A DNA stretch of 64,000 nucleotides. Source: Candidatus Spyradenecus sp. (GTDB lineage Bacteria > Verrucomicrobiota > Verrucomicrobiia > Opitutales > UBA953). The DNA lies in the NCBI GenBank assembly GCA_045535075.1, contig JAZSKX010000014.1, positions 32,001 to 96,000 on the forward strand, written 5' to 3'. Made by a program: the position numbers and the translations under genes. How positions within the stretch are numbered: position 1 is the stretch's first letter; every line of letters begins with the position of its first letter. Under the pieces are notes generated by a model, which saw nothing but the letters and a program-made list of their open reading frames with translations, made no database searches and had not been told where the DNA came from. Below are positions 6,899 to 48,994 of this stretch, in pieces.

Positions 6899-6945
6899 AA
6901 AAACGCGTTCCCGCGGAGTCAGTCACGGGAACGCGTTTGTTTTTT
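6899..6945 (-). terminator. Intrinsic terminator of ilvE, formed by an inverted pair of the CGGGAAC motif
   Basis: AAACGCGTTCCCGCG-n8-CACGGGAACGCGTTT; the one mismatch is a G-U pair on the - strand, followed by a U tract. Confidence 0.85.
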
Positions 6946-6966
6946 CGGATGATAAAATTCGGGAAA

Positions 6967-7836
6967 TTACGCAATCATCGTGCCGTCGATGCGGACTTTT
7001 TTGCGGAAGAGTTCGAGGATTTTTTCCGTGAGCGGACCGCATTTGCCTGCGCCGATTTTGCGTCCGTCGAGTTCGACGACGGGAACGACTTCTGCCGCCG
7101 ATCCCGTAATAAAAGCTTCGTCCGCATTCCAAATGTCATAGCGCGTCATGTCCGTTTCGACGACGGGAATGCCGAGTTCGCGTGCGCATTCCATCGCCGC
7201 CGAGCGCGTAATGCCGATGAGCAGCCCGGACGCGGGAGCAGGCGTGATGAGCTTTCCTTTGTGAATGATGAAAATGTTGTCGCCGGAGCATTCTGCGACG
7301 TTGCCCTGGTCGTTGAGCAAGAGGCATTCGTCGTAGCCGCAGTTAATCGCTTCGATTTTGGCGAGAATATTGTTCAAATAATTCAGCGATTTGACCATCG
7401 GCGGGAGCGCGGCAACGCTCATGCGGCGCGTCGGCACCGTGATGAGTTTAATGCCGTTGGTGTATACTTCCGGCGGATACAATTTAATGGAATCCGCGAT
7501 GATAATCATCGACGGTTTGGAGCAGTTGCGCGGGCTGAGTCCGAGGTCTCCCACGCCGCGCGTGATGACGGTGCGGATGTAGCCGTTGGCAACGCCGTTG
7601 CGGCGGCAGGCTTCGACGTGTGCCTGCGCGATTTCCTCACGGCTCCACGGCAAATCGAGCGCGATGGCTTTCGCCGAGTATTCGATGCGTTCGAGGTGCG
7701 CGTCGAGTTTGAAAATGCAGTTGTCGTAAACGCGAATGCCTTCAAAAAGCCCGTCGCCGTAGAGCAAACCGTGGTCGAAAACAGAGATTTTAGCGTCTTC
7801 TTTTTTGTAAAATTGTCCGTCGATGTAAACTTCCAT
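6967..7836 (-). CDS. ilvE: Branched-chain amino acid aminotransferase
   Basis: ISVFDHGLLYGDGLFEGIR, VKSLNYLNNILAK, ECSGDNIF; ATG 7836 (MEVYIDG) is preferred over the longer ORF start. Confidence 0.95.
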   Translation of the reverse strand: MEVYIDGQFYKKEDAKISVFDHGLLYGDGLFEGIRVYDNCIFKLDAHLERIEYSAKAIALDLPWSREEIAQAHVEACRRNGVANGYIRTVITRGVGDLGLSPRNCSKPSMIIIADSIKLYPPEVYTNGIKLITVPTRRMSVAALPPMVKSLNYLNNILAKIEAINCGYDECLLLNDQGNVAECSGDNIFIIHKGKLITPAPASGLLIGITRSAAMECARELGIPVVETDMTRYDIWNADEAFITGSAAEVVPVVELDGRKIGAGKCGPLTEKILELFRKKVRIDGTMIA

Positions 7837-7921
7837 AAGTGCGCCTATGGAATCACTCGGCGAGCCGAAACGCAAAGATTTTCTTTCCGGAATTAAAATT
7901 GCGGAAAAATCTGCGGGAACG

Positions 7922-9679
7922 CTATTCTGCGGGAAGAATTGCGTTGATGAAAAGTGTCATGCGTTCCTGAATGCTGCGCGGGTTAGAATCCGTCAGGCAT
8001 TCCCGGGCGAGTTTTTGCATGTCCGAGAGCGCGCAATGCCTTAAAATATAGCGAATTCGCGGAGCCGAATTTGCCGTCATGCTGAGAGAATCCGCGCCGA
8101 AGCCGATGAGGAGCGGCGCGAACGCGGGATCGCCGGCGACTTCTCCGCATACGGCACACGGGATTTTTGCCCGGTGCGCCGTGGCGATGGTTCGCGCAAT
8201 TGCACGAATAACAGCGGGGTGGTAAGAATCGTAAAGATGCGAAATCTTTTCGTTCCCGCGATCCACGGCAAGCATGTATTGCGTGAGATCGTTGGTGCCG
8301 ATACTGAAGAAATCCGCTTCGCGGGCAAGATCTTCGGAGACGGAAACGGCGGCGGGAACTTCAATCATCGTCCCGACGGGAATGTCTTCGTCGAAGGGAA
8401 TTCCGGCGGTGCGCAACTCGTTTTTGGCTTCTTCCAAAACGTCCTTGGCGTTGATTAGCTCGGCAAGAGAACTAATCATCGGAAAAAGAATGCGGACGTT
8501 CCCGCGAACGCTCGTTCGTAGGATTGCACGTAATTGCTCCTTAAATATATCCCGGAATTCGAGGCAAAAACGAATGGCGCGAAATCCCATAAACGGATTT
8601 TCCTCCGCCGGCATCAGCCCGCTCGAAATATGTTTGTCGCCGCCGATATCAAGCGTGCGTATGATGACATTGCTGTGTTTCGGCAGAGCATCGACGACTT
8701 GGCGGTATTCTTCGTATTGAACTTCTTCCGGCGGGAAACGATCCGAACGCAAAAAAACACCTTCGGAGCGGAAAAGCCCGATGTCGTAAATATGCATTTT
8801 CCGCATCGTATCCAAATTTTCCTTACCGGAAATATTGGCTTCAATGTGGAAGAAATGACCGTCCGCAGTCGTATCCGGCTTGGCGCTTTCTTCCGCGATA
8901 AGTGCTTCAAGGCGGGAACGACGCAACGAAATCTGCTCGTAGATATCGAGCGTTTTCTTACTCGGATTGACGTAGACAAGCCCCTTGTCGCCGTCGACAA
9001 GGACTTCGTCGTCTTGCGCAATTCTCAGAGTCGCCTTGCGAAGCCCGACGACGGCGGGAATGCCGAGCGAGCGCGCAATAATTGCGGCGTGCGATGTGTG
9101 GTTTCCCGTATCCGTCAAAATTGCTAAGACGCGGGAACGATCAAACGCAATCGTTTCGGAGGGCGTGAGTTCTTCGGCAACGACAACCCGATTACAAAGG
9201 CGTTCCGAAGTGTTTTCCTGGGCTTTTCCGAGAAGATTTTTCAAAACGCGTTGTAAAACGTCCCGAATATCGGCGACGCGCTCTTTGAGATAGCTGTCGT
9301 CCATCCCGGAAAAAAAATCAATGTAATGTCCGGCAACGGAATTAACGCAATGTTCGGCGTTGAGCTTGGAGGTTTGAATCGCGCGCTTGGTTTCGTCAAT
9401 AACGGCGGGATCGTCCAAAACAAGCAGATGCGCGTCAAAAATCTCGGCATTGGCGGGACCGACTTGCGAGATAACTTCCTCAATGAGCTTGGAAATTTGT
9501 TTGCGGGTCTGAGCGACAGCTTTGTCAAAGCGGAGAATTTCGGCTTCGACGTCGTCAATTTTGTAGCAGGGCAGATCGACTTTTTTTTGAAGGAAAACAA
9601 ACGCCTTCCCGCGCGCAACGCCCGGCGCGCAACCGATGCCTTGAAGCCGATATTCCGTTTTGCCTGCCGTCTCGTTCAT
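7922..9679 (-). CDS. ptsI: Phosphoenolpyruvate-protein phosphotransferase (PTS enzyme I)
   Basis: TSHAAIIARS (phospho-His), RTLDIGGDK, EENPFMGFRAIR, FFSIGTNDLTQY, VCGE; start uncertain (9679 or 9715). Confidence 0.93.
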   Translation of the reverse strand: MNETAGKTEYRLQGIGCAPGVARGKAFVFLQKKVDLPCYKIDDVEAEILRFDKAVAQTRKQISKLIEEVISQVGPANAEIFDAHLLVLDDPAVIDETKRAIQTSKLNAEHCVNSVAGHYIDFFSGMDDSYLKERVADIRDVLQRVLKNLLGKAQENTSERLCNRVVVAEELTPSETIAFDRSRVLAILTDTGNHTSHAAIIARSLGIPAVVGLRKATLRIAQDDEVLVDGDKGLVYVNPSKKTLDIYEQISLRRSRLEALIAEESAKPDTTADGHFFHIEANISGKENLDTMRKMHIYDIGLFRSEGVFLRSDRFPPEEVQYEEYRQVVDALPKHSNVIIRTLDIGGDKHISSGLMPAEENPFMGFRAIRFCLEFRDIFKEQLRAILRTSVRGNVRILFPMISSLAELINAKDVLEEAKNELRTAGIPFDEDIPVGTMIEVPAAVSVSEDLAREADFFSIGTNDLTQYMLAVDRGNEKISHLYDSYHPAVIRAIARTIATAHRAKIPCAVCGEVAGDPAFAPLLIGFGADSLSMTANSAPRIRYILRHCALSDMQKLARECLTDSNPRSIQERMTLFINAILPAE

Positions 9680-9985
9680 GAAAACAACGATAAGAGCCCG
9701 TCTTCCCCGGCGCAAGCGCTATTATAAAACAAAACTTTTCTTTGTCTCTTTCGCTGTCCCGGCAAGCGAAACGCGGGAACGCTTTGAATTTTTTAGTCTT
9801 AAGTAAAGCAATTTTGCGTTACTGATGCTTCGCGAAAAAAACGAGGCGCCTGAAAGGTAGAAATCAGCGAAATCGGAGTTCGAGATTTGGTGAAAAATTT
9901 GTGCGTGTTTTTCAAGTTTTGTGAGAAAAACAAGAAATCCGCTTTCCATTTTTCGGGTATTGGCGTATTTTAAATTTCCAAGGTT

Positions 9986-48331: not shown

Positions 48332-48391
48332 ATACGACTTGACTGACGCTTTGTAAATAGTAAACTTAAAATCTTTAGTGTTAATTTGGAT

Positions 48392-48865
48392 ATGAAAACG
48401 AAAGCAACGAAAAGCAAAACCACGAAAAAAGTTACCGAAAAAGCGGCTCCGAAGGCAAAAGCGGCTCCCGCGAAACCGGTTGCGAAGGTAGCGGAAAAAC
48501 CGGCGGCAAAAACCGCTGCACCTAAAAAAGCTTGCGCTACGAAAAAGGTTTGCGAAAAGAAGACGACAACGGAGAAAAAAACGACGGCAAAGGCTGCTCC
48601 CGCTAAATTGAAGCTGACGCGCATTGTCGCTCACGTCGATGTCGGGTGGGGAAAACAACTCTACATCCGCGGTGAAGGCGCCGGACTGAGCTGGGAACAG
48701 GGAATTCCGATGCTTTGCGAAAACGATACCGAATGGCATTGGGTTGCGGAAACGGACGTTTGCCCGATTTCCTTCAAATTCCTTATCGACGACAAGGTTT
48801 GGGCGCTCGGCGAAAATATTACGATTAACGCCGGCGACGTTCATATCTCCGAACCGAGCTTCTAA
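48392..48865 (+). CDS. Lys/Ala/Thr-rich histone-H1-like N-terminus fused to a CBM20-like C-terminal domain
   Basis: KAAPKAKAAPAKP-type repeats followed by DVGWGKQLYIRGEGAGLSWEQGIPM...FKFLIDD. Confidence 0.8.
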   Translation: MKTKATKSKTTKKVTEKAAPKAKAAPAKPVAKVAEKPAAKTAAPKKACATKKVCEKKTTTEKKTTAKAAPAKLKLTRIVAHVDVGWGKQLYIRGEGAGLSWEQGIPMLCENDTEWHWVAETDVCPISFKFLIDDKVWALGENITINAGDVHISEPSF

Positions 48866-48880
48866 ATTTTAGCTTAGACG

Positions 48881-48913
48881 AAACGCGCAGTTTAAAAATC
48901 TGCGCGTTTTTTT
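48881..48913 (+). terminator. Intrinsic terminator
   Basis: AAACGCGCAG-loop-CTGCGCGTTT followed by a T tract. Confidence 0.8.
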
Positions 48914-48953
48914 ATTTCTTAAAAAATCGAAGCTTCCGTTGAATCCGGTTTCG

Positions 48954-48994
48954 AAAAAAAAGCGCGTTCCCGTGGACTGCGGGAACGCGCTTTT
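48954..48994 (-). terminator. Terminator of rph formed by an inverted motif pair
   Basis: AAAAGCGCGTTCCCGT-n5-GCGGGAACGCGCTTTT with an A8 tract on the left. Confidence 0.85.

Follow-up and report, generated by a model that had tools for sequence, protein, structure and literature searches.

The window analysed here is a stretch of 64,000 nucleotides (contig JAZSKX010000014.1, positions 32,001 to 96,000; G000:C1:32001-96000 in our numbering) from the 1.95 Mb assembly of Candidatus Spyradenecus sp., a genome of 51.9% G+C that belongs to an uncultured gut genus of the Opitutales (Verrucomicrobiota). Its intergenic spacers hold GC-rich hairpins whose two arms are inverted copies of one word, arranged GTTCCCG-loop-CGGGAAC, and the same word is dispersed in single copies through genes and spacers. 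The context of the hairpins was established by Pfam scans of the flanking open reading frames (ORFs) and by dicodon-based gene calls. A predicted bidirectional terminator made of two exact copies of the word (14094..14135; -29.4 and -28.5 kcal/mol) separates thrS (plus strand, stop at 14076) from a TatD-family gene (minus strand, stop at 14138). Two exact copies also make up the predicted bidirectional terminators at 26052..26093 (-28.9 and -30.0 kcal/mol), between a 154-aa ORF on the plus strand and an NAD-dependent epimerase/dehydratase gene on the minus strand, and at 48958..48994 (7-nt gap; -28.7 and -29.3 kcal/mol), between a plus-strand 159-aa ORF and the minus-strand RNase PH gene. At 23892..23928 (-21.7 and -26.8 kcal/mol), where a phosphoribosyltransferase gene (plus) meets ruvC (minus), one exact copy is paired with a second arm, CGGAAAC, that has one mismatch. 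At 39146..39183 (-31.3 and -25.0 kcal/mol), between an Rrf2-family regulator gene (plus) and a 421-aa ORF (minus), it is the first arm, GTTCCTG, that has the mismatch and the other copy that is exact; both of these hairpins are likewise predicted to act in both directions. The hairpin at 6901..6938 (two exact inverted copies, 12-nt gap; -26.0 and -26.7 kcal/mol) is a predicted terminator between tandem genes: it follows, at 29 nt, the stop of a class IV aminotransferase gene on the minus strand (6967-7875), and it stands upstream of speA (4831-6786).

These six hairpins had been listed in an earlier note on the window, and its description of them was confirmed. All six were found in place, four with two full copies of the word and two with one full and one single-mismatch copy, and every one has an A-tract at its 5' side and a T-tract at its 3' side. 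Five of the six lie between convergent genes, as had been said of most of them, and only 6901-6938 lies between tandem genes, both on the minus strand. They fold stably on both strands (-21.7 to -31.3 kcal/mol; z-scores of -4.3 to -8.3), none of 200 shuffles being as good, and their loops are all unlike in sequence and length. The list had missed a further hairpin, at 29572..29603, whose arms are both one-mismatch variants of the word (CGCTCCCGC ... GCGGGAGCG). It is predicted as a terminator on the minus strand, past the gene at 29630-30424, with an energy of -22.3 kcal/mol and the T-tract TTTTGTAT. The window has 12 predicted intergenic terminator places, of which 5 are without a word pair. 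A pair in the reverse order, CGGGAAC-N16-GTTCCCG, lies at 20654-20683 in a tandem spacer, and no terminator is predicted there. Metatranscriptome data gave short assembled contigs only, in which transcript ends were not resolvable; one contig, covering 25891-26132, spans the hairpin at 26052-26093 (two runs).

For the whole genome, genes were called with our own dicodon-based script (1504 genes, 86.7% coding), and terminators with a predictor of our own, which asks for a hairpin of at least -9 kcal/mol in stability followed by a run of four or more T, with five or more T in 8 nt, and which made 758 calls. This predictor was used in place of a generic terminator scan that, in 20001-40000, had given 44 sites against 45 in shuffles and had not listed the word hairpins. 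Pairs of the form GTTCCCG-N6-16-CGGGAAC number 170 genome-wide, with a sharp excess at gaps of 6-16 nt and a peak at 12 nt (58 cases). Coding DNA holds 22 of them, and the remaining 148 are intergenic: 59 in the 187 convergent spacers, 88 in the 980 tandem spacers and 1 in the 197 divergent spacers. Pairs in the reverse order with the same gaps number 37, of which 28 are in coding DNA and 9 are intergenic. By our own arithmetic, copy numbers alone would yield approximately 5-10 intergenic pairs of either order, so that the reverse order is at chance level and the forward order approximately 15-30 times above it.

The intergenic pairs have the surroundings of terminators. The flank consensus around the 148 forward pairs is AAAAA-(G)C-word ... 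word-G(C)-TTTTT, and T makes up 70-81% of the letters at positions +3 to +6 past the stem. Among the 346 predicted terminators that lie at most 150 nt past a same-strand stop, 191 contain a forward pair (both arms exact in 168, one exact and one with a single mismatch in 16, both with a single mismatch in 7); the rest comprise 4 with the reverse order, 19 with a single copy and 132 without the word. Merging the terminator calls gave 358 intergenic places: a forward pair was present in 158, a reverse pair in 4 and one lone copy in 22, which leaves 174 with no copy, and 72 of the 158 forward-pair places were called on both strands. The share of word pairs among predicted terminators is 49-55%. 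Taken together, these results suggest that the hairpins are, very probably, rho-independent terminators, most of them bidirectional, whose stems are formed by two inverted copies of a genus-specific word; a terminator role of the word pairs is well supported by the sequence. The word pair would then be a cheap and accurate marker of transcript ends for annotating genomes of the genus.

Beside the full word, a half-core class of terminators with the build A-tract-TCCCGC-loop-GCGGGA-T-tract occurs in the window (48-71 and 57881-57917) and genome-wide. Among terminators without the full word, 32 have the TCCCGC..GCGGGA order and 2 the reversed one.

Hairpins of this kind could in principle be repetitive extragenic palindromes (REP), spread as mobile elements by a Y1 transposase of the RAYT (REP-associated tyrosine transposase) or IS200 type. 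The genome does have two Y1_Tnp genes (C10:516-854 and C14:6715-7062), and REP/RAYT elements, imperfect palindromes of 20-40 nt akin to the repeats beside a RAYT gene, are likewise extragenic GC-rich hairpins that often lie between convergent genes. However, both Y1 genes bear their own terminal inverted repeats of 37-38 nt, which do not contain the word, and neither locus has a word pair. The unit that the hairpins have in common is only the word of 9-11 bp with its A/T tails, while the loops differ, and most copies of the word (85%) are single and intragenic. The mobile-element explanation is thus refuted and keeps next to no probability, in agreement with the earlier statement that these hairpins are not copies of one mobile element. 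The inverted repeats at the two Y1 loci (G000:C10:1-2354, L121, and G000:C14:5215-8562, L122) are 76% and 92% complementary, and the former locus begins with three tandem copies of a 144-nt unit.

The arms had been described as lying always in the same orientation. This holds nearly always: 158 terminator places have the forward order against 4 with the reverse, and a reverse pair stands at an orthologous site in one congener (G008). Several candidate causes of the order were rejected. When the arms are exchanged in silico, 177 of 215 hairpins gain slightly in stability (0.56 kcal/mol on average), which speaks against hairpin stability as the cause. A general rule of a C-rich 5' arm is not seen in word-free terminators, which split 113 against 80, or about evenly once the 32 half-core cases are subtracted (own arithmetic). 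Ancestral terminator stems are not supported as a source of the word and its orientation either, the sister genera having only 0-13 TCCCGC..GCGGGA hairpins per genome, at or below control.

In the literature, the orientation bias of uptake words in terminators is ascribed to an A-rich 5' extension of the word, which supplies the tails. No such extension was found here, and since the 5' flank of the word is flat, that explanation does not apply. In the 5539 coding copies, the 5' flank has no preference beyond position -2, and T is scarce on the 3' side (0.07 at +8 and 0.15 at +9). We argue that these flanks may best explain the fixed order: the free 5' flank could turn into an A/T tail, and the 3' flank, which disfavours T, would be better placed facing the loop. 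The reverse order would force the T-tails and their complements into the constrained 3' flank, and the forward order would be favoured. This explanation is plausible but weak.

The word itself is far from confined to hairpins. The window (1..64000) has 224 copies of its core GTTCCCG, spread over genes and spacers and over the two strands, against 14.0 +/- 3.4 copies (maximum 25) in 100 dinucleotide-preserving shuffles, or approximately 16 times chance; the extended consensus is (G)CGTTCCCG(C/T)(G/A). The whole genome has 6528 copies of GTTCCCG, 5159 of CGGGAACG and 3244 of the 9-mer CGTTCCCGC. The sequence logo reads (G)C-GTTCCCG-C/T-(G/A) with the remaining flanks random, and the two strands are equal in copy number. 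Density is similar in coding DNA (3.28 per kb) and intergenic DNA (3.79 per kb), and the spacing is near-Poisson (16.9 +/- 4.8 copies per 5 kb) except for a few poor islands. Coding DNA contains 5539 copies (85%), single and occupying all six frames, and 983 are intergenic. With 85% of its copies single and intragenic, the word is not primarily a terminator element.

A short and abundant word might also serve recombination or segregation as a polar signal of the type of Chi or KOPS (FtsK-orienting polar sequence). Relative to GC skew, the copies split 2725 against 3057, with 47% on the G-rich strand. This lack of replication skew refutes such a signal, and its chances are vanishingly small. 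The weak local strand bias that does exist tracks gene orientation (r = -0.51), coding copies being antisense in 3330 cases and sense in 2209.

The two largest word-poor islands are Mu-like prophages, recognised by genes for Mu Gam, a MuB-like ATPase, Mu portal, Gp27 and terminase; their density is approximately 0.8 copies per kb, where the genome as a whole has 3.3. The prophages or remnants lie at G000:C16:185000-220000 (L097, L098) and G000:C8:20000-35000 (L099), and the terminase is the large one. One prophage ORF (L098:3561-5024) has an ADP-ribosyltransferase exoenzyme domain (PF03496, E 6.5e-8). Other word-poor places are the rpoC-rpoB region at G000:C5:239808-247769 (L100; 3 copies in the 5-kb bin at 245000) and, at C5:230000, a low-GC island for polysaccharide export where 5 kb contain a single copy, and the small contigs G000:C18 (3741 bases) and C3 (3143 bases) have 0 and 3 copies. 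Phages were considered as carriers of the hairpin and rejected: the three matching viral contigs of IMG/VR hold only 0.2-0.3 copies of the word per kb, so that the matches are due to chance.

We compared 19 genomes of the genus, 62 from four other genera of the family and 16 from other families of the order. The 9-mer CGTTCCCGC is raised in all 19 genomes of the genus, with 340-5581 copies against 34-88 for controls. It is raised in none of the 62 genomes from the other four genera, where no count exceeds 176 (control 143), and in none of the 16 from other families, where it is at or below control. Among the genomes compared, the word is specific to the genus, and forward pairs outnumber reverse ones in each of its 19 genomes. 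A one-base dialect in a sister genus was rejected: CGGGTACG is the top 8-mer in 40 kb of G019, but has 163 copies against 141 for the control genome-wide, and is a local repeat.

Four congeners are word-poor. G001, G002 and G013 have approximately 750 copies of the 9-mer each (746 in G001), and G014 has 340. They do not use another dialect, the first three having the same word at lower density and G014 only the shorter core TTCCCGC, mildly enriched. Forward pairs number 76, 84, 80 and 14 in G001, G002, G013 and G014, respectively, and reverse pairs 9, 7, 7 and 0. In G014 the dominant build is the half-core hairpin TCCCGC..GCGGGA, with 207 cases, a build not found in the sister genera (0-13 per genome, at or below control). 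By two loci, G001, G002 and G013 are also the closest relatives of the genome under study, with 80-82% identity in the ruvC region (at most 77% for other congeners) and 91-92% in a pilin-like protein (at most 87% for others). When 2 kb were compared and G018 and G004 served as outgroups, five of the six word sites of the genome under study, all coding, were shared with an outgroup and hence ancestral; four losses fell in the word-poor sister clade, and one site was gained in the genome under study. Although the sample is small, this suggests that some lineages let their dispersed copies decay and yet retain the terminator pairs, as expected if two different forces keep them.

At orthologous sites, copies of the word are kept far more often than other 7-mers of equal divergence. 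This was measured in 51 alignment segments, in which 24 kb of the window were set against the corresponding DNA of congeners. The word was kept in 8 of 21 cases, against 10% for other 7-mers, at 65-70% identity, in 21 of 39 against 14% at 70-75%, in 71 of 126 against 31% at 80-85% and in 31 of 34 against 65% at 90-95%, these rows being not independent in that the same site is counted in several relatives. The word behaves like a DNA-level 'self' tag kept over evolutionary time. Pairs are retained as well. At the orthologous 3' ends of the epimerase gene (hairpin 26052-26093), a forward pair is found in 11 of 14 congeners and the loops are unrelated, which indicates that the arms are kept and the loops are not; G008 has the reverse pair, and G001, G011 and G014 have none. 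At the thrS terminator place in L059, which may lie outside the genus, no hairpin was found.

These comparisons bear on the possibility that the word exists for termination, single copies being decayed or half terminators or spill-over from stems. In favour of it, pairs make up a large share of the word in the word-poor congeners (76 pairs to 746 9-mers in G001), and G014 combines its 207 half-core hairpins with only 340 9-mers. Against it stand the 5539 of 6528 copies that are intragenic and in all six frames, the conservation of copies at orthologous sites, the sister genera without such stems, and the 2-kb comparison, in which five of six coding copies are ancestral and the losses fall in the word-poor clade. 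A termination origin is close to refuted and, in our judgement, highly improbable.

A mutational or repair bias, such as very-short-patch-type repair or gene conversion biased towards this sequence, would generate the word without any function of its own. Variants one base off at core positions 4-8 (TCCCG) are at or below expectation, as such a bias would predict, while positions 1-3 and 9 tolerate change; some variants are depleted, CGTTCCCCC to 3 copies against 11.5 expected, and CGTACCCG in word-rich genomes (e.g. 1 copy against 83 for the control in G003). The approximately four-fold difference in word density between close relatives also fits. However, C-to-T variants, the expected targets of deamination and patch repair, are not specially depleted (ratios of 1.09, 0.92 and 1.22). 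A bias of this sort would, moreover, hit resident prophages too, yet these are at approximately a quarter of the host density, and it leaves the orientation rule of the terminators unexplained. We consider it improbable.

Among known iterated words, HIP1 of cyanobacteria (highly iterated palindrome, GCGATCGC) occurs in coding DNA about once per 0.3-1 kb and is taxon-specific; its function is debated, with self-marking or modification-type roles under discussion. The word described here is comparable in density, coding presence and taxon specificity, but it is asymmetric where HIP1 is palindromic, and ordered terminator stems are a reported trait of uptake sequences. The uptake signal sequence (USS) of Pasteurellaceae (AAGTGCGGT, with AT-rich flanks) is another hyper-abundant word. 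Bakkali et al. are said to have found, in 2004, that USS copies are conserved at orthologous places, which would be a further likeness. Unlike USS, the word here has random flanks without helically phased AT-rich segments, a far larger share of terminators with the word and a stronger orientation bias. The DNA uptake sequence (DUS) of Neisseriaceae (GCCGTCTGAA and its dialects) is, like ours, a short word that is not a palindrome. Each of the two is restricted to one taxon, where thousands of copies are spread over genes and spacers and over both strands, with pairs concentrated in tail-to-tail spacers. The sequence of DUS is unrelated and its hosts belong to another phylum; the word in the Opitutales is approximately three times denser, has a core of 7-9 bp and is without an A-rich 5' extension that could supply tails. 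In Neisseria the word is bound by a receptor, the minor pilin ComP. Our genome yielded no ComP-like receptor and no detectable ComEA, and an uptake function there is putative.

The closest parallel with DUS concerns terminators. The accessible text of Kingsford et al. 2007 (PMC1852404) gives the uptake word in approximately 55% of Neisseria and 17-29% of Pasteurellaceae terminators, with a strong bias to the +- order for DUS pairs; the 49-55% found here and the strong preference for one pair order resemble Neisseria. In its accessible text, TerminatorNet 2026 (PMC13020248) mentions terminators with uptake words for no families but Neisseriaceae and Pasteurellaceae, with up to 22% in the latter. 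The earlier note had taken the hairpins as the strongest independent support for a DUS-like identity. The genomic pattern does match the published one for Neisseria and Pasteurellaceae as far as that text (PMC1852404) describes it, but a pattern is no proof, and ComEA is missing from our detections.

The word shows the traits of an uptake sequence in each sequence property compared, namely abundance, equal strands, genic and spacer copies, genus restriction, ordered terminator pairs and scarcity in prophages. On this pattern, and by analogy with the mechanism of the two proteobacterial families, we regard it as the most likely reading, if one that is evenly poised, that the word may act as a DNA uptake sequence. 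Some part of a type IV pilus/ComEC machine would bind the word in preference to other DNA, and word-bearing DNA of the genus's own kind would be taken up and recombined. Such an uptake bias would spread and preserve the word. Terminators would then recruit it, two nearby copies making a ready GC-rich stem, and selection for termination would hold the pairs even where dispersed copies decay. Such uptake would call for a type IV pilus with a retraction ATPase, a secretin, ComEA, ComEC and DprA, and genes for all of these but ComEA were found. One cluster contains a PilB-like gene, a PilT-like gene, a further ATPase gene of the GspE/PilB-like type and a PilC-like gene; elsewhere there are a secretin, ComEC, DprA and seven prepilin-type ORFs, four of them clustered at G000:C1:259100-262331.

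Several points weigh against this proposal. ComEA was not found in the genome, the sole match to PF12836 and TIGR00426 being an 805-aa Tex-like frame. The uptake genes detected are shared by many bacteria, including ones not known to be competent, and are not discriminating; ComEC is intact in all 19 congeners, the four word-poor ones included. A comparison of one pilin-like protein across the family gave no genus-specific receptor candidate. The density of one copy per 300 bp is approximately three times that of DUS and USS, and the core of 7-9 bp is short. The order of the pairs is not accounted for by hairpin stability, the arm-swapped versions being slightly more stable, and its explanation by flanks is weakened in that a 2-bp GC spacer would largely lift the conflict. 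Finally, gene calls and terminator calls both came from simple scripts of our own. Two ideas that would have tied uptake genes to the word were rejected: loss of uptake genes in word-poor lineages has no support from the 19 intact ComEC genes, and the 206-aa pilin-like protein, one of the seven prepilin-type ORFs, occurs in all 81 family genomes and is not a genus-specific pilin.

The word might instead be kept, as a highly iterated sequence, by a sequence-specific process other than uptake, such as binding by a protein that organises the nucleoid or the chromosome, or a system for modification or self-marking, with terminators co-opting it. Abundance, genus restriction, prophage scarcity, conservation at orthologous sites and the sharp core would fit any host-specific selection at the DNA level. 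The failure to find ComEA in the genome and the likeness of uptake genes in word-rich and word-poor congeners point the same way, and 3.3 copies per kb is closer to the density of HIP1 than to that of DUS or USS. On the other hand, no candidate binding protein is known and the word is non-palindromic where HIP1 is palindromic. In the accessible parts of the two terminator studies (PMC1852404, PMC13020248), the combination of equal strands, all frames and ordered inverted pairs in approximately half of the terminators is documented only for uptake sequences. We see such a process as unlikely, though with a real share of the probability.

Returning to uptake, we found no paper that connects Verrucomicrobia or Opitutales with this word or with an uptake sequence of any kind. 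To our knowledge, sequence-specific DNA uptake is firmly known from just two proteobacterial families. We tentatively put forward, as a possibility somewhat short of probable, that an uncultured gut genus of the Opitutales (Verrucomicrobiota) may have independently evolved a DNA uptake sequence system, which would be the first outside Proteobacteria and, at one copy per 300 bp, the densest, and that the G001/G002/G013 and G014 lineages may have let the dispersed copies decay and kept the terminator pairs. The origin of uptake words is debated, one side favouring molecular drive through biased uptake and the other selection for exchange with one's own kind. If another phylum has a third word, unrelated in sequence but with the same genomic signature, the phenomenon would be shown to be convergent and wider than thought. 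Close relatives with a four- to ten-fold lower word density and terminators that are still paired offer a comparative handle on the gain and loss of the word; if the proposal is true, the G001/G002/G013 and G014 lineages would provide a natural experiment in which drive by uptake can be told apart from selection in cis.

Some further observations concern the region around the hairpin at 26052-26093. In the faeces metagenome run X1, window positions 22000-30000 are whole in one contig, with 101 letters differing. Many other contigs in the same metagenome runs match the hairpin alone, so that the same stem stands in many other contexts within those communities. The adjoining epimerase gene (26093-27181) has 98% identity to G016 and 96% to G007, and only 88-90% to G001, G002 and G013, which otherwise appear to be the nearest relatives. 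Positions 28092-29529 are likewise 97% identical to G016, while neighbouring genes are only 69-84% identical to it. This mosaic of identities suggests gene exchange between species of the genus.

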